From the NCBI GenBank assembly GCA_902594405.1, contig CACJMB010000005.1, positions 11,657 to 75,656 of the forward strand: a stretch of 64,000 nucleotides of DNA, in the 5' to 3' direction. Positions 2,088 to 23,341 of the stretch are shown here, in pieces. Made by a program: the position numbers and the translations under genes. How positions within the stretch are numbered: position 1 is the first letter of the stretch; the number at the start of each line of letters is the position of its first letter. Source of the DNA: an uncultured Pelagibacteraceae bacterium (GTDB lineage: Bacteria; Pseudomonadota; Alphaproteobacteria; Pelagibacterales; Pelagibacteraceae). The notes beneath the pieces are model-generated. The model saw only the letters and a program-made list of their open reading frames with translations, was not told where the DNA came from and ran no database searches.

Positions 2088-2632
2088 TGTTGGAAATCAT
2101 ACAAGATTTTTATAAAGCAATATCAATAATTGATTTAATTTATTTAATTTTAACAATCCTTTCTTTAATAAATTGTTACAAAAAGGGCTTCATTTTAAGT
2201 ATTCTCTCAATGGCTAAATGGTTGCTGGCTTACATAATTACATTAATTCTATTTCCAAAAATTAAACCTTATGTAAAAGATATAATTGATAATGAGTATG
2301 TACTCGATGTTAGTTTAGGAATACTAATATTTGTAGTTGTTATATTTTTGGTTTTATTAGTTAATAAAGGAATCAGCAAAGCAGTCAGATATACGGGAAT
2401 CGGTGGCTTAGATACGACATTTGGATTCTTTTTTGGTTTTATAAGAGCTTACATTATTTCTGTTTGTATCTTTTCAGGTGTTCATATCGTTTATAATTAT
2501 GATAAATGGCCAATAAATTTTGACAAATCATACGTCTTTCCATATTTAGAAAAAGGTAGTAGTTATCTGATAAAAGAATTTCCTAATGAAAAAACATATC
2601 AAGATTCTAAAGAAAAAATTACAGAGCTATAA
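2087..2632 (+). CDS. cvpA: Colicin V production protein CvpA family
   Basis: Hydrophobic 181 aa protein with GLDTTFGFFFGFIRA (the LDRxLGxxFG-like motif), directly upstream of purF. Confidence 0.85.
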   Translation: MLEIIQDFYKAISIIDLIYLILTILSLINCYKKGFILSILSMAKWLLAYIITLILFPKIKPYVKDIIDNEYVLDVSLGILIFVVVIFLVLLVNKGISKAVRYTGIGGLDTTFGFFFGFIRAYIISVCIFSGVHIVYNYDKWPINFDKSYVFPYLEKGSSYLIKEFPNEKTYQDSKEKITEL

Positions 2633-4067
2633 TCCAAGACTTAAGGAAGAATGTGGAGTTTTTGGTATTAGCAATGCAAAAGATGCTTCAGCTCTAACAG
2701 CACTTGGACTACACGCTCTACAACACAGAGGTCAAGAAGGTTGTGGAATAGTTACTTTTGATGGGGAAAAATATTATTCTGAAAAAAGATTTGGTTTGGT
2801 TGGTGACAATTTCAACAAAGAAAAAGTGCTTAATAATCTTAAGGGAAATTATGCAATTGGTCATAACAGATACAGTACGACTGGAAACAATATATTAAGA
2901 AACATCCAGCCTTTTTTTGCTGACACCAATGCCGGTGGAATTGGAGTTGCACACAATGGAAATCTTACTAATTCAATAGCTTTAAGAAATAAACTAGTTG
3001 AAGATGGAGCTATATTTTACACTACCTCAGATACTGAAACGATTGTTCAATTAATTGCTAAATCAAAGAGACCAAAGACAATTGATAAAGTAATTGATGC
3101 AATTTTTCAAATTCAAGGTGGCTATGCATTAGTAATGTTAACTCAAAACTCTTTAATTGGAGTTAGAGATCCTTATGGAATTAGACCATTAGTAATTGGT
3201 AAGCTTGGCAATAGTTATGTCTTAGCATCTGAAACCTGTGCATTTGACATTATTGGTGCTAAATTTGTTAGAGAAGTTGAAAATGGTGAGATAGTTTTAA
3301 TTGAAAATAATGAGCTGAAAAGCATTAAACCCTTCCCCGCTAAAAAAGTTAGACCTTGTGTATTTGAGTATATTTATTTTTCAAGACCAGACAGTTTAAT
3401 AGGTGGAAAAACAGCTTATGAGCATAGAAAAAATATTGGTAGAGAGCTAGCAAAAGAAAATGATACTGATGCTGATATAGTTGTTCCAGTCCCAGACTCT
3501 GGAAATGCTGCTGCTATGGGTTTTGCTCAAGAATTAAAAATGAATTTTGAACATGGATTAATTAGAAATCATTATGTTGGAAGAACTTTCATAGAGCCAA
3601 GCCAAAAAATTAGGAGCTTGGGTGTCAAATTAAAATTAAATGCCAATCAAACAACAATAAAAAATAAAAAAATAATTCTAATTGATGACTCTCTTGTTCG
3701 AGGAACAACGTCATACAAAATTGTTAAAATGCTTTATGATGCTGGTGCAAAAGAGGTTCATGTTAAAATTGCATGCCCTGAAATAAGATATCCAGATTTT
3801 TATGGCGTAGACACACCTACTAAAAAAGAATTGCTAGCAGCAAATAAAACAAATGATGAAATTTGTGAATATATTGGAGCTAAATCTTTGAGATTTTTAT
3901 CAATAGAGGGATTGTATAAAGCTATTGGTTTTGAAAAAAGAAACGAAACATATCCACAATTAACAGATCATTATTTCACAGGTGAATATCCTGTTAAATT
4001 AGTAGATGAATTAGGCGATAATAAAATAACTCAATTATCTTTACTAAGTACTGGATCAAATAATTAA
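2586..4067 (+). CDS. purF: Amidophosphoribosyltransferase
   Basis: EECGVFG (mature N-terminal Cys), QHRGQE, GHNRYST and the PRPP-binding LIDDSLVRGTT motif. Confidence 0.97.
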   Translation: MKKHIKILKKKLQSYNPRLKEECGVFGISNAKDASALTALGLHALQHRGQEGCGIVTFDGEKYYSEKRFGLVGDNFNKEKVLNNLKGNYAIGHNRYSTTGNNILRNIQPFFADTNAGGIGVAHNGNLTNSIALRNKLVEDGAIFYTTSDTETIVQLIAKSKRPKTIDKVIDAIFQIQGGYALVMLTQNSLIGVRDPYGIRPLVIGKLGNSYVLASETCAFDIIGAKFVREVENGEIVLIENNELKSIKPFPAKKVRPCVFEYIYFSRPDSLIGGKTAYEHRKNIGRELAKENDTDADIVVPVPDSGNAAAMGFAQELKMNFEHGLIRNHYVGRTFIEPSQKIRSLGVKLKLNANQTTIKNKKIILIDDSLVRGTTSYKIVKMLYDAGAKEVHVKIACPEIRYPDFYGVDTPTKKELLAANKTNDEICEYIGAKSLRFLSIEGLYKAIGFEKRNETYPQLTDHYFTGEYPVKLVDELGDNKITQLSLLSTGSNN

Positions 4068-4070
4068 GTT

Positions 4071-4628
4071 ATGAAAACAGTTAATTTTACTGAAATGAAA
4101 AATGGAACTAAGGAAGATTATGAGCTTCTTGAAAAATTTGAAAAAAACTTTGAAAGACAAACAGCTGAGAGAGTTTTAAATTATTTATCTAAACAAACTA
4201 CTACTTTAGAAGGTTACAAAATCACTAGACTAGAACACTCCTTACAAGCTGCAACAAGAGCTTTTAAAAATAAAGAAAGTGATGAAATGGTTGTTGCAAC
4301 TTTATTACATGATATTGGAGATGATTTGGCACCAATGAATCATTCTCAATATGCTGCATCTATACTAAGACCTTATGTTTCAGAAAGAACTTATTGGATT
4401 GTTTTACACCATGGTCTTTTTCAAACTTACTACAGCGCTCACCATTTAGGTGGTGACAGAAATGCAAGAGATAAATTTAAAGACCACAAGTATTATCAAG
4501 ACACGATAGATTTTTGTGAAAAATATGACCAATGCTCTTTTGACCCTGATTATAAAAGTATGACTTTGGATGATTTTAAGCCATTAGTTAAAAAAATATT
4601 CGCAAAAGAGCCTTATTATTATCTTTAA
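4071..4628 (+). CDS. HD-domain metalloprotein (PhnZ/TmpB-like di-iron subfamily)
   Basis: RLEHSLQAA, LLHDIGD, NHSQ, LHHG and YDQ metal-ligand pattern. Confidence 0.75.
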   Translation: MKTVNFTEMKNGTKEDYELLEKFEKNFERQTAERVLNYLSKQTTTLEGYKITRLEHSLQAATRAFKNKESDEMVVATLLHDIGDDLAPMNHSQYAASILRPYVSERTYWIVLHHGLFQTYYSAHHLGGDRNARDKFKDHKYYQDTIDFCEKYDQCSFDPDYKSMTLDDFKPLVKKIFAKEPYYYL

Positions 4629-4657
4629 ATTTAGGTATAAATCACTACTTACAGCGC

Positions 4658-5953
4658 ATGATTGATTCAAAAGAGAAAATTATAAATTATTTTAAATCAG
4701 GTATTAAGGAACCCAAAAATTTCAAAATTGGGATCGAGCATGAAAAGTTTTTATTTAATAATTCGGACAATAAAAGAATTGATTATTCAAAAATAAAAGA
4801 AATGTTTACAGCACTGCTTGAATTTGGCTGGAATCCAGTTTTTGAAAAAGAAAATATCATTGCTCTTAATAAAGGTGGAAAAAATATAACTCTTGAACCA
4901 GGTAATCAAATAGAATTATCAGGAGATAAATTAAATCATATGCACGAAGCTTGTGCAGAATCACAAGACTATTTGTTTGAATTAAAACAAGTTACAAAAA
5001 AACTAGATATAAAAATAGTCAGCGCAGGTTTCGATCCTATATCTAAATTAAATGAAATCCCAAACAATCCTAAACAAAGATATGAATTGATGACTAAGGA
5101 TATGCCTCTAGGTGGTGAACTTAGTTTGGATATGATGTATCGAACATGTGGCACTCAGTTAAATATAGATTATAGCTCAGAAGAAGATTTTATTAAAAAG
5201 TTTAGAGTAGCAAACTCAATAGTGCCTATTGCAATCGCTTTATTTGCGAATTCCTCAATTGTAGAGAAAAAAAATAGCAACTATTTATCTTATAGATCTA
5301 AAGTATGGCAAAGCACTTCTAGAGGTGGATTGCCTAAATTATTTTTCGAAAAAATGAATTTTGAAAAATATGCAGATTTTGTAATTAATTTTCCTATATT
5401 ATTTATACAACATAAAGATCAGTATATCTCAGGTAGGAAATATATTTTTAAGGATTTTATGGAAGGAAAAATTCAAGAAATTGCAAATAGACTTCCAACT
5501 GAAGCAGACTTAACAACTCACTTAAGTACAATATTTACTGAAAACAGAGTTAAGAAATATATTGAATTGAGATCAATGGATACCTGTGGTTGGGATTGTT
5601 TATGTGCAGGACCAGCTTTCAATATAGGCATGCTTTATGGGAATTTAGATGAAGTTCATGAACTAATTTCAACATGGGACAACGATAAAATAATTAATGC
5701 CTATTTAGAGGCACCAAAAAAAGGATTTAATACTCAATTAATGGGTAAAGATCTTCTTTATTGGTCATCTACACTTTTAGACCTTTCAAGAAAAGGTTTA
5801 GAGAATAGAGATGTTTTAAGTAAAAAAGGTAATAACGAGACTGTATTCCTAAACCATCTACAAAAAGTAATTGATAATAAGACAACAAACGCAGATCATA
5901 TGATTAGTAAATTTTCAAAAAACGAAAATTTAGACGAATTGTATGATAAATAA
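4658..5953 (+). CDS. gshA: Glutamate--cysteine ligase (alphaproteobacterial/plant type)
   Basis: IGIEHEKF, TLEPGNQIELSG, MMYRTCGTQLNID and YIELRSMD motifs; adjacent to gshB. Confidence 0.93.
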   Translation: MIDSKEKIINYFKSGIKEPKNFKIGIEHEKFLFNNSDNKRIDYSKIKEMFTALLEFGWNPVFEKENIIALNKGGKNITLEPGNQIELSGDKLNHMHEACAESQDYLFELKQVTKKLDIKIVSAGFDPISKLNEIPNNPKQRYELMTKDMPLGGELSLDMMYRTCGTQLNIDYSSEEDFIKKFRVANSIVPIAIALFANSSIVEKKNSNYLSYRSKVWQSTSRGGLPKLFFEKMNFEKYADFVINFPILFIQHKDQYISGRKYIFKDFMEGKIQEIANRLPTEADLTTHLSTIFTENRVKKYIELRSMDTCGWDCLCAGPAFNIGMLYGNLDEVHELISTWDNDKIINAYLEAPKKGFNTQLMGKDLLYWSSTLLDLSRKGLENRDVLSKKGNNETVFLNHLQKVIDNKTTNADHMISKFSKNENLDELYDK

Positions 5954-11457: not shown

Positions 11458-12282
11458 ATGACTTATCTATCTTCAAATCAACTTAAACAGTATGAAGATC
11501 AAGGTTATATATCCCCTATTGAAGTTTTGTCTAGTCGTGAAGCATTAGAGACAAGAGAAGAAATAGAATTAATTGAAAAAAAAATGCCAAATGAAATAGA
11601 TAAGTCGGGAAGATATAATGTTCATTTAATTTCTCCAAAACTTGATTCGATCGTTCATAATTCTAAAATTTTAGATGCTGTAGAAAGTATTATCGGAAAA
11701 AATATCTTAGTTTGTAGCACTACTTTATTTATTAAAAACCCTAACGAGCAAGGTTTTGTAAGCTATCACCAAGATGCAAAGTACATAGGATTAGAGCCTC
11801 ACAATTGGGTCACAGCATGGGTCGCATTAACAGACTCGAATGAAAACAACGGGTGTATGAAAATGTGGCCTAAATCACATTTAAATATTAAAGATCACAA
11901 TGAGAAATTTAATGAAGGCAACTTGCTTACTCGAGGACAAACAGTAGAGAATGTACCTGAGGACAAAGTTAAGTCTATAGAACTAAAAGCTGGTCAAATG
12001 TCTTTGCATCATCCAAGAATAGTCCATGGGTCAGGAATAAATAAGAGTAATGATAGAAGAATAGGATTTGTTATTCAAAGTTATATAGGGACAAACGTAA
12101 AACAAACCTTAGGTAAAAATGGTGTTCAAGTTGCAAGAGGAGAGGATAAATACCATCATCATGAAATTATAAATAGAACTAATGCTTTAATGAGTGAAGA
12201 AAGTATTTTACTTCGAAAAAAAGAAAATGATTATTTGCAGGAAATTTTTTATAAAGGTGCAAAACAAAAAGGATCTTACTAG
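11458..12282 (+). CDS. Phytanoyl-CoA dioxygenase (PhyH)-family Fe(II)/2-oxoglutarate dioxygenase
   Basis: FIK...YHQD (HxD) motif, distal His in IVHGS, and conserved Arg in DRRIG. Confidence 0.9.
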   Translation: MTYLSSNQLKQYEDQGYISPIEVLSSREALETREEIELIEKKMPNEIDKSGRYNVHLISPKLDSIVHNSKILDAVESIIGKNILVCSTTLFIKNPNEQGFVSYHQDAKYIGLEPHNWVTAWVALTDSNENNGCMKMWPKSHLNIKDHNEKFNEGNLLTRGQTVENVPEDKVKSIELKAGQMSLHHPRIVHGSGINKSNDRRIGFVIQSYIGTNVKQTLGKNGVQVARGEDKYHHHEIINRTNALMSEESILLRKKENDYLQEIFYKGAKQKGSY

Positions 12283-12285
12283 TTT

Positions 12286-13296
12286 ATGAAAAAAGCACTT
12301 AACCTTGGAGTAATCGGAATAGATCATGGTCATATTTTCGATATGCTAGATGAAATGATTAAAGAAGGTTGTAGCTGTAATTATTTTTGGACAGATGGAG
12401 ATCCTTTAACTCTTAAAGAATTTAATAAAAAATATCCAAATATTAAAAGAAAAGAAAATAAAGAGGAAATATTAAATGACTCATCTATTGATATGATTTT
12501 AATATCTTCAATCCCTGTAGATAGAGCTGGTCATTCAATAGACGCATTAAAAGCTGGTAAAGATGTTATGGTAGATAAACCAGGCTGTACTACCTTAGAT
12601 CAGTTAAATAATTTAAAAAACGTTGTTAAAGAAACTGGAAAGATATGGTCTGTAAATTTTTCTGAAAGATTTCACGTTGCTGCAGTTGCTAAAGCTGAAG
12701 AATTAGTCAATGAGGGAAAAATTGGTAAAGTAAAGCAAACGATTGGTACAGGTCCCCATAGACAGGGTAATTATGAAAGACCTGATTGGTTTTATAATCG
12801 TCAAAGTTATGGAGGAATTATTACCGATATTGGTTCTCACCAAATTCATCAATTTTTGGTTTTTACAAATTCAAATCAAGCAAAAATCAACCATGCATTA
12901 GTAGAAAATACTACAAAGAAAGATATGCCTGGTTTTCAAGATTTTGGCGAAGTGAACCTTACTGGTAATGGTGGGCATGGTTATATTCGCCTAGATTGGT
13001 TTACTCCAGATGCCCTTCCAACCTGGGGAGATGGCAGATTGTTAATCCTTGGAGACAAAGGTTTTATTGAAATAAGAAAATATACAGACCTAGCAAAATC
13101 AGAAAAAGGTAATCATTTATTTTTAGCAAATAATGATGAGGTGAAGCATATTGATTGTTCTAATGTTAAACTACCCTACTTTAGCAATTTAATTACTGAT
13201 GTTTTAAACAGAACAGAAACTGCATGTCCTCAAGATCTTACTTATCTTTCAATGGAACTTGCTATTAAAGCTCAAGAGCAAGCCGAAAAAAAATGA
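12286..13296 (+). CDS. Gfo/Idh/MocA-family oxidoreductase
   Basis: Rossmann GVIGIDHGH, GKDVMVDKPG and DIGSHQI motifs. Confidence 0.9.
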   Translation: MKKALNLGVIGIDHGHIFDMLDEMIKEGCSCNYFWTDGDPLTLKEFNKKYPNIKRKENKEEILNDSSIDMILISSIPVDRAGHSIDALKAGKDVMVDKPGCTTLDQLNNLKNVVKETGKIWSVNFSERFHVAAVAKAEELVNEGKIGKVKQTIGTGPHRQGNYERPDWFYNRQSYGGIITDIGSHQIHQFLVFTNSNQAKINHALVENTTKKDMPGFQDFGEVNLTGNGGHGYIRLDWFTPDALPTWGDGRLLILGDKGFIEIRKYTDLAKSEKGNHLFLANNDEVKHIDCSNVKLPYFSNLITDVLNRTETACPQDLTYLSMELAIKAQEQAEKK

Positions 13297-14372
13297 AAAA
13301 ATATCAAGTTGCAATAATTGGTACCAATATAGGGGCAAAACATTTTGAAGATTTTCAAAAAGTATCTGAGAGATTTAGTATTCACACATTATGTGGTTTA
13401 ACTCGGGAGGCTATTGATAAAATATTACAATTAAATACTGAGACAAAAGTTTCTCTAAATTTTGATGATGTATTAAAAGTTAAAGAAATTGATATTATTG
13501 ATATTTGTCTCCCACCCCATTTACATTTTTCTGCTTGTAAAAAAGCTATAGAAGCTGGAAAGCATGTGATTTGTGAAAAACCATTAGTTTCAAGTCTTAA
13601 AGAAATAGATGAATTAGAAAAAATTAGCAAAGAAACTGGCAAAATTATTTTTCCAGTATTTCAATATCGATATGGTCTAGGATTTTCAAAATTAAAAGCA
13701 TTGATCAAATCTGGTTTAGCAGGAAACCCTTTGGTTGCTTCTTTAGAAACTCATTGGAATAGAGGTAAAGATTATTATTCAAAACCTTGGAGAGGAACTT
13801 GGGAAGGTGAACAAGGTGGGGCAATTTTAAGTCACTCTATTCATATTCATGATTTAGTTAGTATGATCCTGGGGCCTGTCTCAAATATTTTTGCAAAATT
13901 AACAACTAGAGTAAATGATATTGAAGTTGAAGATTGTGCAGCTCTTTCTATTGAAATGGAAAACGGCACATTAGTTACAAGTTCAATTACATTGGGTGCA
14001 GCAAATGATACGAGTAGACTTCGATTTTGTTTTGAAGGGTTAACAGCTGAGTCTGGTGCATCACCAGATAAACCATATAGTCCAGCTGATGATAAATGGG
14101 ACTTTTTACCAAGAGCACCTATAACTCAAGCTCAAATAGATGAAGTGCTATCAAAGGTAAAAGAACCAAAATCATGGTATGCAGGTATGTTTGAAGAAAT
14201 TGCTAATAAACTAGATGGATATCCTAGTGATGAAGTAACTTTATCAGATGCTAGAAAATCTCTAGAATTTGTAACCGCTGTGTATGATTCTTCTAGACAA
14301 AATAAGAATATTAAACTTCCAATTAATAAAGATAATCCTTTATATAATTCTTGGTTACCTTTAAATAATTAA
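13293..14372 (+). CDS. Gfo/Idh/MocA-family oxidoreductase
   Basis: GKHVICEKPL, EQGGAILSHSIHIHD and EVED motifs. Confidence 0.9.
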   Translation: MKKYQVAIIGTNIGAKHFEDFQKVSERFSIHTLCGLTREAIDKILQLNTETKVSLNFDDVLKVKEIDIIDICLPPHLHFSACKKAIEAGKHVICEKPLVSSLKEIDELEKISKETGKIIFPVFQYRYGLGFSKLKALIKSGLAGNPLVASLETHWNRGKDYYSKPWRGTWEGEQGGAILSHSIHIHDLVSMILGPVSNIFAKLTTRVNDIEVEDCAALSIEMENGTLVTSSITLGAANDTSRLRFCFEGLTAESGASPDKPYSPADDKWDFLPRAPITQAQIDEVLSKVKEPKSWYAGMFEEIANKLDGYPSDEVTLSDARKSLEFVTAVYDSSRQNKNIKLPINKDNPLYNSWLPLNN

Positions 14373-14850: not shown

Positions 14851-14913
14851 TGTATGAACAAAGAAAACGCAAGTAAACTCTGGAAAATTATTCAGGATGC
14901 TGGCGATTATTTG
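14851..14913 (+). repeat. 63-bp direct repeat, left copy (partner at 18821..18883)
   Basis: 61 of 63 positions are identical by manual alignment; mismatches at 14859/18829 and 14898/18868. Confidence 0.95.
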
Positions 14914-14922
14914 GGGTGCTAG
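14854..14922 (+). pseudogene. Truncated duplicate (22 codons) of the 5' end of the 75-aa gene at 18824
   Basis: Reads MNKENASKLWKIIQDAGDYL-GC-stop, versus MNKENASKLWKIIQEAGDYLLG at 18824. Confidence 0.85.
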
Positions 14923-14930
14923 TGGTACAC

Positions 14931-14965
14931 CCTACCTGACACTACCTCACACTACTTCACACTAG
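14931..14965 (+). repeat. Imperfect 10-bp tandem repeats (cctacctgac actacctcac actacttcac actag)
   Basis: Read directly from the sequence; 10-nt period, 3 to 3.5 units. Confidence 0.75.
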
Positions 14966-15030
14966 CTATGCGGACTATTTAATTTTCATCAAAAATAATT
15001 TGCTTAAAGACTCATCAATTTAAGCAATAA

Positions 15031-15067
15031 ACTAGTCCCCAAACTAGAACATATTGAGATAAATCAA
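15031..15067 (+). repeat. Repeat R1 (37 bp) ACTAGTCCCCAAACTAGAACATATTGAGATAAATCAA
   Basis: One of three near-identical intergenic copies (15031, 16989, 18774). Confidence 0.95.
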
Positions 15068-15121
15068 ATAGCCATTTTTAAGTAATTAGACTCTCTATTT
15101 ATGATTTGGTAATCTTGGATC

Positions 15122-16423
15122 ATGAGCTTAAGTACTGAACTTAAAAAAAAAATTGCTAGAGTAAAACTTAAAGAGTCAGGAACATTTGTTTCTATTTATG
15201 CAGGAGATCTTATTTATGATATCTTGCGCGTTGATCCTAGAGTCGTAGATGGTGTTGATTTTCTTCGAAAAGATGATTTGTCCAGTGTATTAAAGTTTGG
15301 AAAACAAGAGATTGCAGATAGAGCAGAAAAATCAAAAGAATCTTTATCTGGATTACATGACAGTTACACTGGATACACTTTTGAAAGAGTTGTTGCCTTG
15401 GATTTTCAACAGAGAGGTTCTGAAGTTCAATTCCCAAATTCAGCTCAACAATCTGGTCATGATCTTGTAATTAATGGTGAAAAGTTTCAAGTAAAGACCC
15501 AGGGGGACGGTATAGATATAATTGAGAGACATTTTGAAAAATATCCAAACATTAGAGTAATTGCAAACAGTGAAGCTCATGAAAAGTTTATAGAAAAGTA
15601 TCCTGAAAAAGCACATTTGGTTATGAATAGTGGATTTAGCCACGATCAAACTGAAAACCTGGTTAAAGAAAGTACAGACGCAGCTGTGGAAGTATTTGAA
15701 GACAATAATTTATTTGGAAGTGCAATTCCTGAAATACTTGGAATCGTTTCAATTATTTCTATTGGAAAAAATTTTATGAATTGGGCAGAGGGAAATACAA
15801 ATGTTGAGACAGCATTAAAAAATGTTGCAATCGATAGTGTAGGAAAATTTGCAGGAGCTGGAGTAGGTGCAAAATTAGGTTCTTTTATACTGCCACCTTT
15901 TGGAACTATAGTTGGTGGCACACTAGGATTTGTTTTTGGTGGCAACTTAGCTAATGAATATAAAATTGATAATTACTGCAAATATGAAATGGAAAATTTA
16001 GATAAAGCAATTGATGATTATTTAAAAAAAAGTGAGGAGATAATAAGTAAAAATAATAAAAATTTTGAAAAGAAAGTAAAATATTTAACCGAAAAATTAA
16101 AAAATAAAAAAGGTGAAAGAGCTAGAGAGTTTGAATTATTTATTAATAAAAAAATTTTAAGAGAAAGAAAAGATAAACAAGGAATTCTAAATACACTTAG
16201 AAAATATTTTAAAAAATCTAGACGAGGTATCGAAAAATTTGAGGAACTATCTAAGAAATTTAAAGATAAGACTAGTTCAACGAAATATAATCATTACGCA
16301 CTAGAAGCATTAAATTTGTCAGCAGAAAATGGCGTTATGCCAGAGTTTATCCCTTTCGAAGCAGATAATTTATTTGATAAAGTTAAGAAATTTATGGAAG
16401 CAGCAAAAAAACACGGTGTTTAA
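15122..16423 (+). CDS. Hypothetical protein with putative PD-(D/E)xK-like nuclease motif, glycine-zipper TM segment and Lys/Glu-rich C-terminus
   Basis: GYTFERVV...GHDLVINGEKFQVKT (E...D...QxK) followed by AGAGVGAKLGSFILPPFGTIVGGTLGFVFGG. The nuclease call is inferred from the motif only. Confidence 0.55.
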   Translation: MSLSTELKKKIARVKLKESGTFVSIYAGDLIYDILRVDPRVVDGVDFLRKDDLSSVLKFGKQEIADRAEKSKESLSGLHDSYTGYTFERVVALDFQQRGSEVQFPNSAQQSGHDLVINGEKFQVKTQGDGIDIIERHFEKYPNIRVIANSEAHEKFIEKYPEKAHLVMNSGFSHDQTENLVKESTDAAVEVFEDNNLFGSAIPEILGIVSIISIGKNFMNWAEGNTNVETALKNVAIDSVGKFAGAGVGAKLGSFILPPFGTIVGGTLGFVFGGNLANEYKIDNYCKYEMENLDKAIDDYLKKSEEIISKNNKNFEKKVKYLTEKLKNKKGERAREFELFINKKILRERKDKQGILNTLRKYFKKSRRGIEKFEELSKKFKDKTSSTKYNHYALEALNLSAENGVMPEFIPFEADNLFDKVKKFMEAAKKHGV

Positions 16424-16429
16424 AATAAG

Positions 16430-16771
16430 ATGTTTAATTGGATTAAAAGTAAAATCTCTAAAAAAATTAATTCAGAAATGGATGGATGCATTTTGCAAAA
16501 TCTTAATTTTGTAAATATGGTTGAGAAGGAACAATATATTTTTAAGAAAAATATTGACCAGACTATAATGAATCGAATTTATGAGATCAAAGAACAAACT
16601 GAAAAATATGATAAAATTAAAAAAGCTGGTGATAACTTTACCCCTAAAGAAACAGATGATTTGTTGGAAATGAATATGCATTGTAGAAACATTTGGAAAA
16701 CTTATTTTAATAAAACCGCTTTTGAGTTTGATAAAATATTTTCAAGTGATGATCTTGACAGTGATAACTAG
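16430..16771 (+). CDS. Hypothetical protein, 113 aa
   Basis: ORF begins 6 nt after the upstream stop on the same strand. Confidence 0.6.
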   Translation: MFNWIKSKISKKINSEMDGCILQNLNFVNMVEKEQYIFKKNIDQTIMNRIYEIKEQTEKYDKIKKAGDNFTPKETDDLLEMNMHCRNIWKTYFNKTAFEFDKIFSSDDLDSDN

Positions 16772-16791
16772 AGTATCTAACCTAATTAAGT

Positions 16792-16971
16792 ATGACAAAT
16801 TGGCAAATAATTTTAGCGATTATAATTGTTGGATTGTCAATTGTTATGCCAATTTACTATTCTCAAAAAAGAAAGAAAGAAAATCAAACCAAACAAGAAG
16901 CAATTGAGCGTATGCAAATTCGAGAATATGGTAGAAAAATAAACGACGAAACTAGAGCAAAGAAAAAATAA
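16792..16971 (+). CDS. Small single-pass membrane protein, 59 aa (not in the ORF track)
   Basis: Manual translation MTNWQIILAIIIVGLSIVMPIYYSQKRKKENQTKQEAIERMQIREYGRKINDETRAKKK: a hydrophobic N-terminus followed by a basic tail. Confidence 0.7.
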   Translation: MTNWQIILAIIIVGLSIVMPIYYSQKRKKENQTKQEAIERMQIREYGRKINDETRAKKK

Positions 16972-16988
16972 ATTAAATTTTATTGAAA

Positions 16989-17025
16989 ACTATTCCCCAA
17001 ACTAGAACATTTAGAGATAAATCAA
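16989..17025 (+). repeat. Repeat R2 (37 bp) ACTATTCCCCAAACTAGAACATTTAGAGATAAATCAA
   Basis: Second copy of R, lying between cassette A and the SDR-TetR cassette. Confidence 0.95.
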
Positions 17026-17054
17026 AATAGTAATTTATATCAAAATAAGTATTT

Positions 17055-17101
17055 GTCAACAGTTGTTGATAAAATAATAATATAAGTCAACAGTTGTTGA
17101 C
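17055..17101. promoter_or_regulatory. Two palindromic operator candidates GTCAACA-GT-TGTTGA(T/C) at 17055..17070 and 17086..17101
   Basis: The second copy is a perfect 7-2-7 inverted repeat. Both lie upstream of the SDR gene that is paired with a TetR gene. Confidence 0.75.
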
Positions 17102-17147
17102 TCTTTAAATAATAACTTCTAAATTTTATCTAAAAAAAGGAGCAATT

Positions 17148-18101
17148 ATGAAAAATGAAAATAAAAATATGAGTCGAAGACAAGCAATTAAGGGAATTGG
17201 TGCAGTAGCATTAGGTACCACAGCATTAGCAGCTTCAAGTACTGCTAAAGCGAATGAAAAAAAAACAAAAAAAGAACTTGAAGGAAAAACAGCTCTGATC
17301 ACAGGTGGAGCACGTGGCATTGGTTTGGCTAGTGCTGAAGAGCTTGCAAAAGCAGGAGCAAATATCGTTCTTTTTGATGTAGCAAGTGATTTAGAGGGTG
17401 TAAATTATCCTTTGGCCACTGATTTAGATCTAGCAAATGCAAAAAGTAAAGTAGAGTCTTATGGTGTTAAATGTATTTCTTATAAAGGAGATGTAAGAGA
17501 TAGATCTGCCCTATCAGATGCTGTTGGTATGGCTGTTAAGCAGTTTGGAACATTAGATCATGTTGTAGCAAATGCAGGAGTAACACAAATTGGAATGATG
17601 GAATATTTCAGTGAAAAAGAAATTCAAACTGTAATTGATATAAATGTGACTGGAGTTGTGAAAACTATACAAGCTTCTATACCAGTTATGAGAAAACAAA
17701 ATTCTGGGGGAATAACTATTTTATCTTCAGTTTTAGGACGTATGGGTGAAGAGTGGTTTCCAGTTTATTCTGGTACCAAGTGGGCTGTAATTGGATTAGC
17801 AAAAAGTACCGCTTTAATTATGGGAAAGCATAACGTTACTTGCAATGCTATATGTCCAACTGTTGTAAAAACTAAACTCATGAACAATAAATATGTTCTA
17901 GGAGCAATGTCTCCTGAAAACCCAACATGGGAAGGTTTAGAAACGTTAATGAAACAATGGAGAAACCCTCTTCCAATGGGAGCATATAACCCTAATGAGA
18001 TTGGTGAAATGGTTAAATTCTTTGCTAGTAAAAGTGGTGAAAAAATTACTGGTGAAGTTCTAGGAGTAGCAGCAGGTTTATTTGCTCGGAATACTGCTTA
18101 A
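17148..18101 (+). CDS. SDR oxidoreductase with Tat signal peptide, resembling the mycofactocin-associated/carveol dehydrogenase SDR subfamily
   Basis: SRRQAIKG twin-arginine motif plus hydrophobic stretch and AKA cleavage site; TGGARGIG, VVANAG and YSGTK motifs; the DVASDLEGVNYPLATDLDLA insert. Confidence 0.8.
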   Translation: MKNENKNMSRRQAIKGIGAVALGTTALAASSTAKANEKKTKKELEGKTALITGGARGIGLASAEELAKAGANIVLFDVASDLEGVNYPLATDLDLANAKSKVESYGVKCISYKGDVRDRSALSDAVGMAVKQFGTLDHVVANAGVTQIGMMEYFSEKEIQTVIDINVTGVVKTIQASIPVMRKQNSGGITILSSVLGRMGEEWFPVYSGTKWAVIGLAKSTALIMGKHNVTCNAICPTVVKTKLMNNKYVLGAMSPENPTWEGLETLMKQWRNPLPMGAYNPNEIGEMVKFFASKSGEKITGEVLGVAAGLFARNTA

Positions 18102-18159
18102 ATATTCTTCCTCTCGGATCAATCTTTAAGACCCTATTTGAATTGATCTAAAAAACTAT

Positions 18160-18190
18160 AAGTCACCTTGTATTTATTATAAGGTGACTT
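18160..18190. promoter_or_regulatory. 10-bp inverted repeat AAGTCACCTT-N11-AAGGTGACTT upstream of tetR (operator or hairpin)
   Basis: Perfect inverted repeat in the SDR-TetR intergenic space. Confidence 0.55.
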
Positions 18191-18208
18191 GTTATATTTT
18201 TTTAAAAG

Positions 18209-18754
18209 ATGAGAAATTCAAATAATTCAAAAAAAATAATTTTTAATACTGCTAAAAAGCTTTTCTGGACGAAAGGTTATTCAAATGTTTCAGTTCGAGA
18301 TATTGCCAAACAATCTAAATATGACATCGCTCTTATCTCTAGGTACTTCGGCAGTAAGAAAAAGCTTTTTGAAGAAACATTAAAAGATGTTGCAGAATGG
18401 TTTGTTGATGTAAATCCAAATAATATTGTTGATTTTATGGTTGAAGGCCTAATGGAAAATTCAAATCCAAAAGATGATGTAAACCTTGTTAGAATGCTGT
18501 GTATGAATTCTGGTGATCCAGAAGTTGGACATATAGTCAAAAAATTTCATAGAGAAAAAATGAGAAAACCAGTAATTGATGGGATAAGGAAAAAAATTAA
18601 ACCTATCAATTACGATTTAATGGGTGCAATTTTAGTAGGGGTTTCTGTTGCACGAAAAACTCTCGACAATCCTATTTTAAGCAAACTGAATGATAGAGAA
18701 TATGAAAAGATATTAAGGCATTTATTTAATGCAGCGTTAAATTATAAAAACTAA
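18209..18754 (+). CDS. TetR/AcrR-family transcriptional regulator
   Basis: N-terminal HTH: IFNTAKKLFWTKGYSNVSVRDIAKQSKYDIALISRYFGSKKKLF. Confidence 0.92.
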   Translation: MRNSNNSKKIIFNTAKKLFWTKGYSNVSVRDIAKQSKYDIALISRYFGSKKKLFEETLKDVAEWFVDVNPNNIVDFMVEGLMENSNPKDDVNLVRMLCMNSGDPEVGHIVKKFHREKMRKPVIDGIRKKIKPINYDLMGAILVGVSVARKTLDNPILSKLNDREYEKILRHLFNAALNYKN

Positions 18755-18773
18755 TTATAGGATTTTATGGGAT

Positions 18774-18810
18774 ACTAGTCCCCAAACTAGAACATTTGGA
18801 GATAAAACAA
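18774..18810 (+). repeat. Repeat R3 (37 bp) ACTAGTCCCCAAACTAGAACATTTGGAGATAAAACAA
   Basis: Third copy of R, ending 13 nt before the ATG at 18824. Confidence 0.95.
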
Positions 18811-18823
18811 GAATTTAGGTTGT

Positions 18824-19051
18824 ATGAATAAAGAAAACGCAAGTAAACTCTGGAAAATTATTCAGGAAGCTGGCGATTATTTGTTGGGGCAATTACCTGA
18901 TCACCCAAATCACCCCAAAGGAAGAAACCCCTATGCTCATGTTGCTATTTGTGTGAAGAGTAAGTTTAACGCAAGTTATAAAGACATTCCTGATGAACAA
19001 TATGATGAAGTGATAAAATATATTGAGTTTTTAAAAGAAAATCCTAGTTAG
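18824..19051 (+). CDS. Small hypothetical protein, 75 aa (apparent integration target)
   Basis: Intact ORF whose first 20 codons are duplicated at 14854. Confidence 0.75.
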   Translation: MNKENASKLWKIIQEAGDYLLGQLPDHPNHPKGRNPYAHVAICVKSKFNASYKDIPDEQYDEVIKYIEFLKENPS

Positions 19052-20093
19052 CTTTAATTATATCTAACAATTCGTCAACATCACTATCTTTAGTATTCCA
19101 AGCAGCAACTAATCTTACCGCTTTACCATCTAATTCTTCTTCATTCATTTTATAACCTTCAGAATTTAGATGTTCTATTTTTTCTCTTGGAAATTTTGCA
19201 AAAACTTCATTTGCTTCTGTTGGATAAGCAATTTCAATATCATTATACTTACTTAGACCATCACTTAATTTTTTACCCATAGCATTGGCATGTTTTGCAT
19301 TTCTTAACCAAACATCATTTGAAATGTATGCATCGAGTTGAGCAGAAACAAAACGCATTTTAGATAATAAGTGCCCTGCTCTTTTCATTAAAAAAGTAAT
19401 GTCTCCAACTAATTCTTTCTTAAAAAAAATGATTGCTTCAGCTGCTAAACATCCATTTTTAGTTGCGCCAAATGACAATACATCAACCCCTGATTTCCAT
19501 GTCATTTCAGCAGGAGTAACATCTAAAGAAACCAATGCATTAGCAAATCTTGCTCCATCCATATGTAAATTTAAATTATGTTTATGAGTGATTTCTGCAA
19601 TTTTTTTGATTTCATCTAATTGGTAAACTTCACCTGTTTCACACACTTGAGTGATACTGACTGATGAAGGTTGTGTATGATGAACAATCCCTTTTCCCCC
19701 AATAGATTGATCTAACTCCTCTGCAGTTATTTTTCCCATTACCCCATTTAATGTAACTAACTTTCCTCCTCCTGTATAAAATTCAGGTGCACCACATTCA
19801 TCAGTATTTATATGGGACATCTTATGACAATAAATGTTTCCATAAGAAGGTGTCATTGTAGATAATGCTAAAGCATTAGCAGCTGTTCCTGATGCAGTAG
19901 GAAATACAATTACTTCTTTTTCAAATATTTCTGAAAACTTGTCTTGTAATTCAGTTGATATTGGGTCATTCCCATAAGGAGTACTATCTCCCTCATTGGC
20001 TTTTAAAATTGCATCTAATACTTCAGGACAAGCACCAGCAACATTATCAGAAGCGAATTTAACTCGCTCTCTTTTTATTTTAATTTTTGCCAT
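19044..20093 (-). CDS. ltaE: Low-specificity L-threonine aldolase (PLP)
   Basis: FASDN, SGTAANAL, LHMDGARFANA and the PLP-lysine motif SFGATKNG. Confidence 0.88.
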   Translation of the reverse strand: MAKIKIKRERVKFASDNVAGACPEVLDAILKANEGDSTPYGNDPISTELQDKFSEIFEKEVIVFPTASGTAANALALSTMTPSYGNIYCHKMSHINTDECGAPEFYTGGGKLVTLNGVMGKITAEELDQSIGGKGIVHHTQPSSVSITQVCETGEVYQLDEIKKIAEITHKHNLNLHMDGARFANALVSLDVTPAEMTWKSGVDVLSFGATKNGCLAAEAIIFFKKELVGDITFLMKRAGHLLSKMRFVSAQLDAYISNDVWLRNAKHANAMGKKLSDGLSKYNDIEIAYPTEANEVFAKFPREKIEHLNSEGYKMNEEELDGKAVRLVAAWNTKDSDVDELLDIIKAN

Positions 20094-20095
20094 AA

Positions 20096-21211
20096 TTATT
20101 GTTTTGGAAAGTAATCTTTAAGTTCACCCTCTCGGTAAACATCTGCAGTACAACAATGTAAACCTCCACCAAAAGCGTATGCATCTCTAAGTTCTACTGG
20201 TATAACTTCCATTCCTAATTTATCTAATTGTTCAGCTTGATATTTTTCACTTTTTTCCACACATACAGTTTTAGGATCTAAAACTAAAACATTCATTGAT
20301 AACCAAGTTGATGAATAACATAATGGTGGTGGTTCGTTATGAGCTGGTTGTGCACTGTCTACGATTTCCCAACCATTGTCTTCAAATAATTTTCTTTGTT
20401 CCTTAGGAAGTCTTCTTTGTGGGTTATTGATAATTAAACCCTCTTTAATTGGGGTAAAAGTTGCATCAATGTGAATTGGATAAGGATCACCTGGGAAGTT
20501 AACTGCATGAACTCTGTGATCTTTATAATGTCTCTTTAGCCAATCAATTCCTTTTAAATTTGTTGTAAAACCATGTTGAACAACTAAATCTTTTCCAAAT
20601 CTCAATACATCTGCTGCATCAAATAATGGTTCTTCCTCAGTGGTTACAAAATATTTTTTTTCAGTCCACTCTAATCTTTTTTGAACACCAATTTTATCTG
20701 ATAAATAATCTTTTCTGTAATCTGCATCCGTTAATCTTGGTTTTGGAGCAGACTCGTGTCTCATATTAGGATCTTGATTATAATAATCTTTTAGAAGTGG
20801 TCGGTAACATAAATATTCAAACCAACGACAACGATAACTCATTGTAGCTTCTAAAATTTCGTTTCCCACAGTTAACAAAACATCTCTTGGGGGCATGCAG
20901 CCAAACATTGTTTCTGCTTCCCAATCAGGTGTAGATGTTTTTTGATTAAAATCTATTGGTGTCGGTCGATCAACTTTAATACCTCTTTTTTCAAGCATAT
21001 TTGAAAAGTTATCTAATAATTCATTTGCTTTATCGACAGTATCTTTTGTTCTTGGACCAAACTGACCCCGCATATCACTATCTTCTGGAACTTTTGCATC
21101 TAATGCAGGCTCTGGTGCTGGTATACAAGTACCATCCGCTCTACCAACAATTACATGTTTTAACGGATCCCACTCATTCCAACTATTAACAATAGTTTTA
21201 TTCTCGCTCAT
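20096..21211 (-). CDS. Amidinotransferase (glycine/inosamine-phosphate amidinotransferase family)
   Basis: SWNEWDPLKHVIVG, PRD, FDAAD, HIDAT and GGGLHCCT, giving an intact Asp/His/Cys triad. Confidence 0.9.
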   Translation of the reverse strand: MSENKTIVNSWNEWDPLKHVIVGRADGTCIPAPEPALDAKVPEDSDMRGQFGPRTKDTVDKANELLDNFSNMLEKRGIKVDRPTPIDFNQKTSTPDWEAETMFGCMPPRDVLLTVGNEILEATMSYRCRWFEYLCYRPLLKDYYNQDPNMRHESAPKPRLTDADYRKDYLSDKIGVQKRLEWTEKKYFVTTEEEPLFDAADVLRFGKDLVVQHGFTTNLKGIDWLKRHYKDHRVHAVNFPGDPYPIHIDATFTPIKEGLIINNPQRRLPKEQRKLFEDNGWEIVDSAQPAHNEPPPLCYSSTWLSMNVLVLDPKTVCVEKSEKYQAEQLDKLGMEVIPVELRDAYAFGGGLHCCTADVYREGELKDYFPKQ

Positions 21212-21216
21212 AAAGA

Positions 21217-22434
21217 TTAGTTTTTTATAATATTATGCTCAGGCCCGAAAGGAAATTTTGTAATATTTTCTGCTCCATCTTTACCAATCACCAAAATATC
21301 ATGTTCTCTATATCCACCAGCGCCAGGATTACCCTCTGGGATCATGATCATTGGCTCCATCGACACGACCATATTTTCCTCAAGAACAGTATCAATATCT
21401 TCTCTTAATTCTAAACCAGCTTCTCTTCCATAAAAGTGTGAAAGCATACCAAATGAATGTCCGTAACCAAAAGTTCGGTACTGAAGGTAACCAAGTTCAG
21501 CAAACAATTCATTTAACTCATGACAAATATCTGAACATTTAACACCTGGTTTAATCAATTCTAATCCACGTTTGTGAACTTTAACATTTGCTTCCCAAGC
21601 TTTAAGTGAAGCATCATCAGCATGGTCCAAAAACAAAGTTCGCTCTAGTGCGGTGTAGTAACCTGAGATCATAGGAAAAGTATTTAAAGATAAAATATCT
21701 CCTTTAACTAATTTTCTATTAGTCTTTGGATTGTGAGCTCCATCTGTATTGATACCAGATTGAAACCATACCCAAGTATCCATGTACTCTGCACCTGGAT
21801 AGCTTTTAACAATCTCTCTTTCCATTCTATCTCTTGCTGCTATTGCTACTTCGATCTCTGTATTATCTTCTCTAATATTTTTAACTATTTCTTCACCACC
21901 AATGTCTGCAATTCTTGCACCATTTCTAATGATCTCTATTTCTTCGTTTGATTTAATCATTCTAAGTTTCATTAGATCCTTTGAAACATCACTAAACACA
22001 GAGAAAGTAAAAATAGACCCTATTTTTTCTCGCATATCTAACGTGACATGATCATTTTCAATTCCAATATTTTTTGGAGGTTCATCTCTTCCTATAATTG
22101 AAACAATGGCTCTTAAAAAATTATCCCTTTTCCAATCAGTGTAAATAACGTTATCACAATGAGATCTACGCCATGGTTGACTTGCATCAATGTTAGCTGA
22201 AATTGTTGAGATTTTATTTTGAGTGATCACACATCCGTATGGTCTTCCAAAAGAGCAATAAATAAATCCGGTGTAATATGCAACGTTATGCATTGAGGTT
22301 AAGATAACCATATCTAAATTATTTTTATCCATCACTGATCTAAGTTTGCTTACTCGATCGTTATATTCTTTATCGGTAAATGGTAATTTTACTTTTTCAC
22401 CGTTTTTAAGTTCAAAAAAATCTGGTCGTTCCAT
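21217..22434 (-). CDS. Creatinase (creatine amidinohydrolase, M24 fold)
   Basis: YCSFGRPYG, WFQSGINTDGAHNP, YTALERT, GHSFG and SMEP motifs. Confidence 0.88.
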   Translation of the reverse strand: MERPDFFELKNGEKVKLPFTDKEYNDRVSKLRSVMDKNNLDMVILTSMHNVAYYTGFIYCSFGRPYGCVITQNKISTISANIDASQPWRRSHCDNVIYTDWKRDNFLRAIVSIIGRDEPPKNIGIENDHVTLDMREKIGSIFTFSVFSDVSKDLMKLRMIKSNEEIEIIRNGARIADIGGEEIVKNIREDNTEIEVAIAARDRMEREIVKSYPGAEYMDTWVWFQSGINTDGAHNPKTNRKLVKGDILSLNTFPMISGYYTALERTLFLDHADDASLKAWEANVKVHKRGLELIKPGVKCSDICHELNELFAELGYLQYRTFGYGHSFGMLSHFYGREAGLELREDIDTVLEENMVVSMEPMIMIPEGNPGAGGYREHDILVIGKDGAENITKFPFGPEHNIIKN

Positions 22435-22435
22435 A

Positions 22436-23341
22436 TTAATTTAATGCTATATATCTTTTGTTCCATCTCATTATTAAACTGTAATAAAATATAGATACAA
22501 AAAGAAAAAAGCCTCCGATTATTGTATTTGTGGATGGTACTTCATTAATACCAAATAATGGCAACCAAACCCAAAAAATTCCACCTACAACTTCAGTTAA
22601 AGATAATAAAGTTAATTCTGCTGCTGGTATCGCTTTAGATCCAATTGAATATAAAATTAAACCAAAACAAACTAGTGTCCCATGCAAAGAAAATAAAGCT
22701 CCGTTATAGCTAGATGAAAAGAAAACTAAGTCTTTTGATAAAATCATAATTGTTGCAAATACAAAACAAAAGAAACCTGCAAAGGCTACTGTTGTGAATT
22801 TTGGTGTTTCTTTTCTCCATCTAAGCGTTACAGAAAAAACTGAGAAACCAATTGAGGAAGTTAAACCAAATACAAAACCAATTAATGATTTTTCACCGGT
22901 GTTTCCAAGTGCCATAATAATGATACCAACTGTTGCAATTATTATTGATATCCAAACATTGAGAGAAATTTTTTCTTTTAAAAATAAAAATGCTAATAAT
23001 GCTGTAAAAAAAGGCATTGCTGCCAAACAAAGTAAAGTAACTGCGGCGCTAGTATTTGTAATTGAATAAATGAATGTAATCATAGCGATTCCCAATCCAG
23101 ATCCACCAATTACCCCTGATAAACCTATTTTATAATAGTTTTTGTAAAAATTTTTTCCTTCCTCGAAAAATAAATAAAGATTTAATAAGATGAAAATTGT
23201 TAAACCTCTCCCAAAAATATACTGCCAAGGTGCCAATTGAGGATTATCCATGTATCGAACCACTAATGGGCCAAACGACCATAGTAGACCTGCAAAAAGT
23301 ACAACGGGAATGGCTATTCTTGGATTTCTCAACTCTAACAT
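22436..23341 (-). CDS. DMT/EamA-family transporter
   Basis: About 10 TM helices; first gene of the creatinase operon. Confidence 0.85.
   Translation of the reverse strand: MLELRNPRIAIPVVLFAGLLWSFGPLVVRYMDNPQLAPWQYIFGRGLTIFILLNLYLFFEEGKNFYKNYYKIGLSGVIGGSGLGIAMITFIYSITNTSAAVTLLCLAAMPFFTALLAFLFLKEKISLNVWISIIIATVGIIIMALGNTGEKSLIGFVFGLTSSIGFSVFSVTLRWRKETPKFTTVAFAGFFCFVFATIMILSKDLVFFSSSYNGALFSLHGTLVCFGLILYSIGSKAIPAAELTLLSLTEVVGGIFWVWLPLFGINEVPSTNTIIGGFFLFVSIFYYSLIMRWNKRYIALN

Follow-up and report, generated by a model that had tools for sequence, protein, structure and literature searches.

The closest described relatives of the protein studied here are the mycofactocin-coupled short-chain dehydrogenases/reductases (SDRs) in family TIGR03971, which the accessible part of PMC3023750 describes as exclusive to mycofactocin species in an 'only-if' relation; the accessible part of PMC5264612 likewise describes the family as exclusive to such species. 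According to the same part of PMC5264612, an insertion in these enzymes buries the NAD, with a cofactor surface of 18 Å2 vs 89 Å2 in ordinary SDRs, and exchange between NAD and NADH was not seen by nuclear magnetic resonance in insert-bearing SDRs. For carveol dehydrogenase, deletion of this loop abolishes tight NAD binding, as stated in the available text of PMC12985038. Here, we analyzed a stretch of 64,000 nucleotides (the window) from contig CACJMB010000005.1 of an uncultured Pelagibacteraceae bacterium (GCA_902594405.1), in which one SDR gene encodes both an insertion of this kind and a predicted twin-arginine translocation (Tat) signal. An earlier reading of the sequence alone, below called the original prediction, had proposed a periplasmic alcohol or terpenoid dehydrogenase with tightly bound NAD and a redox mediator. 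Our analysis argues that the SDR is probably an exported, NAD-retaining enzyme of a signal-bearing clade, with re-oxidation of the cofactor possibly achieved by a second small substrate.

The SDR core carries a conserved NAD-burying insertion

With a PF00106 (adh_short) score of 158.5 bits, compared to a gathering cut-off of 26.6, the protein is a classical SDR, and its Pfam matches are restricted to SDR families. Both the Rossmann glycine motif and the catalytic tetrad are present and conserved in an alignment of 24 diverse sequences of signal-bearing SDR relatives, referred to as A1 (Table 1). Among the NCBIfam models, TIGR03971 (mycofactocin-coupled SDR family oxidoreductase) scores best with 256.1 bits, while the best model outside the mycofactocin set, 3-hydroxybutyrate dehydrogenase, reaches 166.8 bits.

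The insert D-x-x-x-D-L-x-x-V-x-YPLAT-x-x-DL named in the original prediction is found at residues 77-95. Its pattern, D-VAS-DL-EG-V-N-YPLAT-DL-DL, matches the 3S55 insertion loop position by position in the alignment. NAD is specified by the acidic D77, which, like Y87 and D94, does not vary in A1. The TGxxxGxG and NAG motifs are 90 residues apart in this SDR and in most insert-bearing relatives vs 76-83 residues in multi-domain and ordinary SDR matches. 3S55 is also the best sequence match among solved structures (169.8 bits), followed by 3T7C, 5EJ2 and 3UVE ('carveol dehydrogenases').

An AlphaFold2 model calculated from the 24-sequence alignment has a confident core and a mean predicted local distance difference test score (pLDDT) of 83.3; residues 1-9 and 15-38 appear disordered, with pLDDT values below 50. 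In a Foldseek search with this model, mycobacterial NAD-bound SDRs occupy ranks 1-12, 15, 18 and 22, as listed, and reach target-normalised template modelling scores of 0.89-0.94. Hence, with TIGR03971 as the best family model and 3S55 and 3T7C as the best structures, the closest kin are indeed the mycofactocin-associated, NAD-burying SDRs, as had been predicted.

A twin-arginine N-terminus is encoded ahead of the SDR domain

The SDR reading frame starts with ATG, a choice supported by the AGGAG box in front of it, which is unchanged in four genomes although the intergenic DNA around it differs. As AGGAG and ATG are both invariant in these four genomes, the twin-arginine signal should be translated. 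An internal start at M8 was rejected, since M8 would still sit ahead of the arginine pair, and a lipoprotein reading was discarded because the N-terminus holds no cysteine.

The predicted twin-arginine motif SRRQAIKG is present at residues 9-16 and corresponds to the Tat pattern S/T-R-R-x-F-L-K in the form S-R-R-Q-A-I-K, followed by an h-region and an AxA site. The n-region MKNENKNMS precedes the arginine pair (17175-17180); the h-region, IGAVALGTTALAASS, comprises 15 residues, is rich in Ala, Gly, Thr and Val and is mildly hydrophobic (Kyte-Doolittle 1.2-1.8); the c-region is A33-K-A35. Thereafter, a lysine-rich linker leads to strand 1, which begins at residue 47. R10 and R11 are invariant in A1, while the remaining N-terminus is not conserved.

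The same arrangement was found in the homologue set, consisting of the best 120 of 4512 matches from 8000 scored candidates and sorted with a home-made signal classifier. An arginine pair and a hydrophobic stretch precede the glycine motif in 115 of the 120, and the pair is preceded by S or T in 90 of these 115. The five exceptions are two fragments starting inside the domain, one protein with a foreign N-terminus, one that is N-terminally truncated and one with an extension lacking the arginine pair; the two fragments and the protein with the foreign N-terminus lack the glycine motif that was used for classification. In the bacterium's own genome, a strict motif, [STGNDQ]RRx[FLIVMA][LIVMFKA], together with a nearby hydrophobic stretch occurs at the N-terminus of only 9 of 1192 open reading frames (ORFs) of at least 100 residues. 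Judged by these comparisons, the arginine pair of the SDR is more than a chance occurrence.

A matching export machinery is encoded in the same genome. The genes tatA, tatB and tatC lie together on its contig 1, with a TatC score of 242.9 bits and two TatA/B genes directly upstream of tatC. Four other ORFs of the genome have good twin-arginine N-termini (G000:C3:66421-67575, C3:71144-72346, C5:82797-83960 and C1:36980-37882), with motifs that include SRRKFFK, SRRDFLK and NRRSFIK; they are likely Tat substrates of this small genome.

Signal-bearing SDRs form a separate clade

A scan of 1.84 billion cluster representatives returned 201 proteins at E<=1e-30. Among the best 150 of these 201, the top ranks are held by proteins of ~305-350 residues with a twin-arginine N-terminus, and from about rank 14 proteins of ~270-285 residues that begin at the Rossmann fold are mixed in; the 90-residue motif spacing typical of the insert is found in the majority of either group. 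A tree of 124 core domains was calculated by an LG+G4 search, with the signals removed and with 37 of the 150 representatives excluded as fragments, multi-domain proteins or rows without a recognised glycine motif. One branch, with a support of 96 in the Shimodaira-Hasegawa-like approximate likelihood ratio test, contains 57 rows, namely 46 of the 48 signal-bearing proteins, six of the seven with an extension lacking the arginine pair and five of the 67 without a signal. Two proteins outside the branch that had been classed as 'tat' (P0225 and P0269) are regarded as false calls, having arginine pairs in atypical positions.

Five TIGR03971 proteins from actinobacteria and Competibacter served as controls. 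They were drawn from L004-L011 of a contig scan based on A1, which used generic SDR motifs and mostly returned unrelated SDRs, the only clade members being L003, L008 and L016. The controls have no signal and fall outside the signal-bearing branch; on TIGR03971, the actinobacterial ones score 295.2-315.4 bits and the Competibacter protein 354.6 bits. For 14 of 15 other signal-bearing relatives this score is 218.6-279.2 bits, and for one it is 300.6 bits. The N-terminus with the arginine pair measures 35-43 residues in the clade and is missing in the actinobacterial controls. Where a source is named, clade members come from marine cyanobacteria, Methyloceanibacter, Pleionea, Sediminicola, Roseovarius and Deltaproteobacteria; the clade spreads over Cyanobacteriota, Bacteroidota, several lineages of Pseudomonadota and a streamlined marine genome. 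This tree places the SDR in a large signal-bearing clade that is separate from the mycofactocin-coupled SDRs and sister to them. The match to TIGR03971 that the original prediction offered as a check is borne out as to the best-scoring family; the score of the protein stays below the family cut-off and its place is in this sister clade.

A phylum-wide protein search found only the own genome, one of 401, at E<=1e-70, which is weak evidence of rarity as five candidates per genome were scored. A plasmid search gave no clade member, just two cytoplasmic mycofactocin-type matches.

Six carrier genomes lack mftC above cut-off

The mycofactocin gene mftC (TIGR03962, cut-off 265) was above cut-off in none of the six carrier genomes examined, the best score being 103.7 bits, and pqqE was not found in the own genome. 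Thus, the predicted lack of mft genes in the window extends, for mftC, to the genome as a whole. The description of TIGR03971 as occurring only in genomes with mycofactocin genes does not hold for the signal-bearing SDR in these six genomes. The accessible parts of PMC3023750 and PMC5264612 hold nothing relevant on Tat, twin-arginine signals or the periplasm.

The one relative that exceeds the TIGR03971 cut-off, just above it at 300.6 bits, is a cyanobacterial Tat-signal SDR (L008:2326-3303, plus strand). Naming it 'mycofactocin-coupled' is likely an annotation error; its genome (G603) has no mftC above cut-off.

Gene neighbourhoods contain aldehyde-type regulators and reductases

To compare neighbourhoods, 63 metagenome loci were collected with a family-specific DNA pattern, and the SDR ORF was recognised by motifs in 56 of them. 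Clustering these 56 and L090 at an identity of 85% yielded 18 clusters. One representative per cluster, three genome loci and the window made up the final set of 22 loci, in which neighbours within 4 kb of the SDR were recorded.

The most frequent neighbour is an AraC-family regulator (15 of 22 loci), followed by a second, cytoplasmic SDR of the PRK06182 type without a signal (11 loci) and a DkgA-like aldo-keto reductase (5 loci). The TetR type of the window occurs in three loci and another TetR in L147, giving four with TetR. No further family is common to even two of the 22 loci; in particular, no gene for a cytochrome, a cupredoxin, cofactor synthesis or another redox partner is conserved across them. 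The original prediction of a redox mediator hence found no candidate mediator or partner gene in the neighbourhoods. Glyoxalase-fold proteins were identified by Pfam in three loci.

The AraC_N + HTH_18 architecture of Escherichia coli YqhC is shared by at least eight AraC neighbours, one of which has 30% identity to YqhC along the full length (E 6e-47). YqhC senses aldehydes, and in E. coli its gene adjoins yqhD and dkgA, which encode an aldehyde reductase and a methylglyoxal reductase. The combination of YqhC-like AraC or TetR regulators, a cytoplasmic SDR and DkgA-like reductases suggests small carbonyl compounds as substrates and lends no support to the terpenoid substrate originally considered.

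The SDR gene moves together with a TetR gene

The own genome has a size of 1.25 Mb and ~30% G+C and is 90% complete. The SDR gene is rare among its relatives, being found in four of 201 genomes of the order (the own genome counted) and in three of 116 other species of the genus. What the own genome shares with G073, G122 and G061 is only ~1.9 kb, comprising the SDR gene and the downstream TetR gene, at 91-98% nucleotide identity, and in two of these three relatives the surroundings of the pair are unrelated. Homology to the other genomes begins at ~16970-17015 and ends at 18813-18883, close to the boundary repeats listed in Table 1, and a community contig that joins 17018 to 18822 represents the empty site. 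By its distribution and its boundaries, the SDR-TetR pair is a 1.9-kb mobile cassette.

The TetR gene accompanies the SDR gene in G073, G122 and G061, and the same TetR type adjoins it in the metagenome loci L145 and L151. Two palindromic boxes upstream of the SDR gene agree fully between the four genomes apart from a single base in box 1 of G061, whereas their flanks vary; the boxes may serve the neighbouring TetR as operators. Promoter-like sites at 17053-17081 and 17097-17125 overlap the boxes, their frequency being no higher here than in shuffled sequences. Contigs from three runs filed as RNA, belonging to two studies, cover the SDR gene (17092-18025 in X11 and 17149-17800 in X12) and the TetR gene (18081-18690). 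The stretch 16700-16942 is uncovered in every run, including a probable DNA run, which reflects the cassette boundary only.

In a wider view, positions 14851-19051 form an array of cassettes delimited by repeats, with three copies of a repeat of ~67 nucleotides with the core ACTAGTCCCCAAACTAGAACATTTGGAGATAAA. One cassette holds a glycine-zipper protein and an ORF of 113 residues, the next one the SDR and TetR genes. The 5' end of a small ORF at 18825-19050 is duplicated at 14851-14913 (97% identical). Over 80 nucleotides (18806-18886), the summed contig word depth is 217-4891 in four marine runs vs ~5-66 over the SDR and TetR genes, and many different sequences abut this stretch at 18823-18828. 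Within the community, a junction or repeat at the start of the small ORF thus appears to be very frequent. L151, a metagenome relative that has the same SDR-TetR pair, carries directly upstream of its SDR gene an ORF (1523-2806, minus strand) whose domains are Phage_integrase and HTH_36 and which may have a bearing on cassette movement.

Two gene groups flank the array. On the left, at 11458-14372, a PhyH-family dioxygenase gene is followed by genes for two Gfo/Idh/MocA oxidoreductases, with a TPR-sulfotransferase and an MFS transporter encoded upstream; this block is 93% identical to G073. On the right (19044-23341, minus strand), genes for a threonine-aldolase-like lyase, an amidinotransferase-like protein, a creatinase/M24 peptidase and an EamA transporter may form a catabolic cluster for small nitrogen compounds.

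Table 1. Features of the SDR-TetR cassette, in window coordinates. A1 is the alignment of 24 signal-bearing relatives; a point in the strand column marks features given no strand.
Feature	Position	Strand	Basis
SDR coding sequence (317 aa, stop codon included)	17148..18101	+	ORF list, PF00106, TIGR03971
Shine-Dalgarno sequence AGGAG, 5 nt 5' of ATG	17138..17142	+	Sequence; invariant across four genomes
Predicted Tat signal peptide, residues 1-35	17148..17252	+	Sequence, hydropathy; cleavage site inferred
Rossmann glycine motif T52-GGARGIG-59	17301..17324	+	T52, G53, A55, R56, G57 and G59 invariant in A1
NAD-site insertion D77-L95, DVASDLEGVNYPLATDLDL	17376..17432	+	Aligns with 3S55 and 3T7C loop
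Catalytic tetrad N166 (17643-17645), S194 (17727-17729), Y207 (17766-17768), K211 (17778-17780)	17643..17780	+	All four invariant in A1
TetR-family regulator, 181 aa, cassette partner	18209..18754	+	PF00440 50.9 bits, TetR_C_16 22.5 bits
Left boundary repeat of cassette (D1 copy)	16977..17043	.	One of three copies: 15019-15085, 16977-17043, 18762-18828
Right boundary repeats: D1 copy 18762-18828; D2 copy 18821-18883 (= 14851-14913)	18762..18883	.	Repeat analysis
Two palindromic boxes: TCAACAGTTGTTGA (17056-17069), AGTCAACAGTTGTTGACT (17085-17102)	17056..17102	.	Direct repeat D10, sequence
Terminator-like hairpin (15 pairs, 18158-18192) with T-run, between SDR and TetR genes	18158..18202	+	Repeat and terminator analysis

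Proposed mechanism and alternative explanations

Any NAD enzyme in the periplasm must bring its cofactor along and keep it, as there is no free NAD pool in this compartment. In the clade, a Tat-type signal and an NAD-burying loop are both conserved, which fits this need, and we therefore consider it probable that the SDR is an exported enzyme that retains its NAD. On balance, a nicotinoprotein-type SDR exported by Tat, which would cycle hydride between carbonyl and alcohol substrates in the periplasm, explains the observations best. The sequence of events that we infer, from export and cleavage to non-exchangeable NAD, the substrate class and a ping-pong cycle, would run as follows. The SDR would fold and take up NAD in the cytoplasm, pass through TatABC in the folded state and lose its signal by cleavage near A33-K-A35. 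In the periplasm the mature protein would act as a nicotinoprotein, with the insertion loop D77-L95 keeping NAD(H) from leaving and a second small substrate recycling the bound cofactor, either by alcohol:carbonyl transhydrogenation or by aldehyde dismutation. The outcome would be an inducible periplasmic step for the handling of reactive carbonyl compounds.

Several observations weigh against this interpretation. The query has A-I where the Tat consensus has F-L, and the profile scores for residues 1-45 are low: PF10518 (TAT_signal), the sole Pfam match there, reaches 17.6 bits vs a cut-off of 22.7, TIGR01409 14.3 vs 16.7 and TIGR02811 29.6 vs 48.45. The NCBIfam matches in this region are mostly models of Tat signals or Tat substrates, including one Tat-substrate family, all below cut-off, and when 24 clade members were scanned as whole proteins, PF10518 matched only one and a Rieske Tat-signal model two. 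The support from profile models for a Tat signal is hence suggestive rather than conclusive, and comparative conservation provides the stronger argument. Furthermore, the curated TIGR03971 cut-off of 300 bits is not reached, a second loop at about residues 248-281 was modelled with lower confidence (pLDDT blocks of 62-87), the tree comes from a quick search, and the five signal-less rows inside the clade may be real cytoplasmic forms. The contigs from RNA runs cover the gene but cannot show transcription, as DNA may be present, and were not counted as expression. Gene neighbourhood is weak evidence for a substrate class, and the window copy has only TetR beside it. Finally, the loop grafted on another SDR does not confer tight binding, according to the available part of PMC12985038; because the loop is necessary but insufficient there, tight NAD binding by the present SDR stays a prediction.

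Some of these points, namely the Tat profiles below threshold, the TIGR03971 score below cut-off and the insufficiency of the loop alone (PMC12985038, accessible part), could equally be taken to indicate an ordinary cytoplasmic SDR that exchanges NAD freely and whose extension either is no export signal or is a membrane anchor. We regard this as very improbable. The arginine pair is invariant and the n-, h- and c-regions are kept across phyla while the other N-terminal residues drift, the Shine-Dalgarno sequence sets the start ahead of the signal, an AxA site follows the h-region and the insert is fully conserved; moreover, the h-region is too short and, at its measured hydropathy, too weakly hydrophobic for a stable anchor. 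Alternatively, the bound NAD may be purely catalytic in a redox-neutral reaction, in which a transient oxidation is reversed by re-reduction; the enzyme might, for instance, epimerise or isomerise a sugar or polyol of the periplasm or catalyse an elimination on it. Neither a second substrate nor an acceptor would be involved. Such chemistry with tightly held NAD is carried out by UDP-galactose 4-epimerase and by GH109 glycosidases with Tat signals, and it would explain the lack of a partner gene. The protein is, however, a classical SDR with the N-S-Y-K tetrad, its neighbours are reductases and aldehyde-type regulators rather than sugar transporters or glycosidases, and carveol dehydrogenase, the nearest characterised relative, does a net oxidation (cited in the accessible part of PMC3023750), all of which makes a redox-neutral role improbable.

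More weight, within what we still deem unlikely, is given to the view of the original prediction, an exported SDR with permanent NAD whose electrons go to an outside acceptor in the periplasm that is encoded elsewhere in the genome; a cytochrome c, a quinone or a small mediator could fill this role, in parallel to cytoplasmic mycofactocin. The nearest kin depend on an external partner or on an artificial dye, for instance DCPIP (PMC5264612 and PMC3023750, accessible parts), and only the edge of the nicotinamide ring is exposed in their structures (PMC5264612, accessible part); the insert and the signal serve this explanation equally well. Against it stand the neighbourhoods, in which cytochrome, cupredoxin, cofactor-synthesis and other redox genes are common to not even two loci, the absence of mftC above cut-off in the six carriers and of pqqE in the own genome, and the movement of the gene in a two-gene cassette with a regulator only. 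Given this mode of movement, a partner could only be some housekeeping component that very different phyla have in common. As no mediator gene is conserved in the 22 loci, a shuttle without partner is at least as likely as an unnamed mediator. A two-substrate hydride shuttle acting on carbonyls is therefore favoured, if only tentatively, since there is no conserved partner gene, the gene travels with a regulator only, and aldehyde-type regulators and carbonyl reductases are its companions. It is a rather unlikely extension of this shuttle that the whole signal-bearing clade serves as a self-contained periplasmic device which, lacking any electron-transport partner, renders reactive aldehydes harmless before their passage through the inner membrane; examples of its substrates would be unsaturated aldehydes of algal or lipid origin in seawater, removed either by dismutation or through transhydrogenation with a co-substrate.

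Significance and comparison with known systems

The NAD-burying insert has so far been read as a mark of mycofactocin dependence (PMC3023750, accessible part); here, it is conserved in a signal-bearing clade without mftC, as judged from six genomes. If exported, the members of this clade would be the first SDR-type nicotinoproteins outside the cytoplasm and would offer a simple test system for the re-oxidation of captive NADH without mycofactocin and for the purpose of the loop. If the self-contained shuttle holds true, the insert would have evolved for cofactor retention in general, with mycofactocin as only one use. For annotation, clade members that score near the TIGR03971 cut-off can be mislabelled as 'mycofactocin-coupled'. 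A full-text literature search, with most subscription journals outside its scope, did not turn up any account of an SDR of this type that is periplasmic or exported by Tat; a paper on Collimonas (PMC12542777) was set aside, as it mentions Tat signals and SDRs separately. As a probable periplasmic enzyme that brings its own NAD, the SDR would represent an undescribed type.

With the TIGR03971 enzymes, such as LimC, the carveol dehydrogenase of Rhodococcus, and the structures 3S55, 3T7C, 3UVE and 5EJ2, the protein shares the SDR fold, an insertion after strand 2 with a YPLAT-xx-DL core, an Asp for NAD and the N-S-Y-K residues. It differs from them in its score of 256 bits vs 300, its twin-arginine N-terminus, its separate clade and its occurrence in genomes without mftC, and in that the neighbours of signal-bearing SDRs are regulators and reductases, not mft genes.

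For the proposed mode of working, the nearest parallels lie in other folds. The glucose-fructose oxidoreductase of Zymomonas mobilis and the aldose-aldose oxidoreductase of Caulobacter both keep NADP tightly bound and let it alternate between two sugars as substrates, without an external acceptor. Both enzymes are periplasmic, and their Tat signals are cleaved on export (PMC4628093, accessible part). The likeness to the SDR is an analogy of mechanism only, as these enzymes have the Gfo/Idh/MocA fold, use NADP and act on sugars, whereas the SDR shows no Gfo/Idh/MocA fold by either Pfam or fold matches. Nicotinoprotein alcohol/aldehyde oxidoreductases of the medium-chain dehydrogenase/reductase (MDR) type and formaldehyde dismutase contain bound NAD(P) and perform aldehyde dismutation or alcohol:aldehyde transhydrogenation without free coenzyme. 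They resemble the proposed SDR in this bound-cofactor, coenzyme-free mode, but are zinc-containing medium-chain dehydrogenases that are cytoplasmic and have no signal peptide. The genomic setting, in turn, recalls the YqhC-YqhD-DkgA locus of E. coli, with an AraC regulator beside the SDR in most of the loci compared and DkgA-like reductases in some of them; that locus has no exported SDR, and the window copy is paired with TetR instead of AraC.

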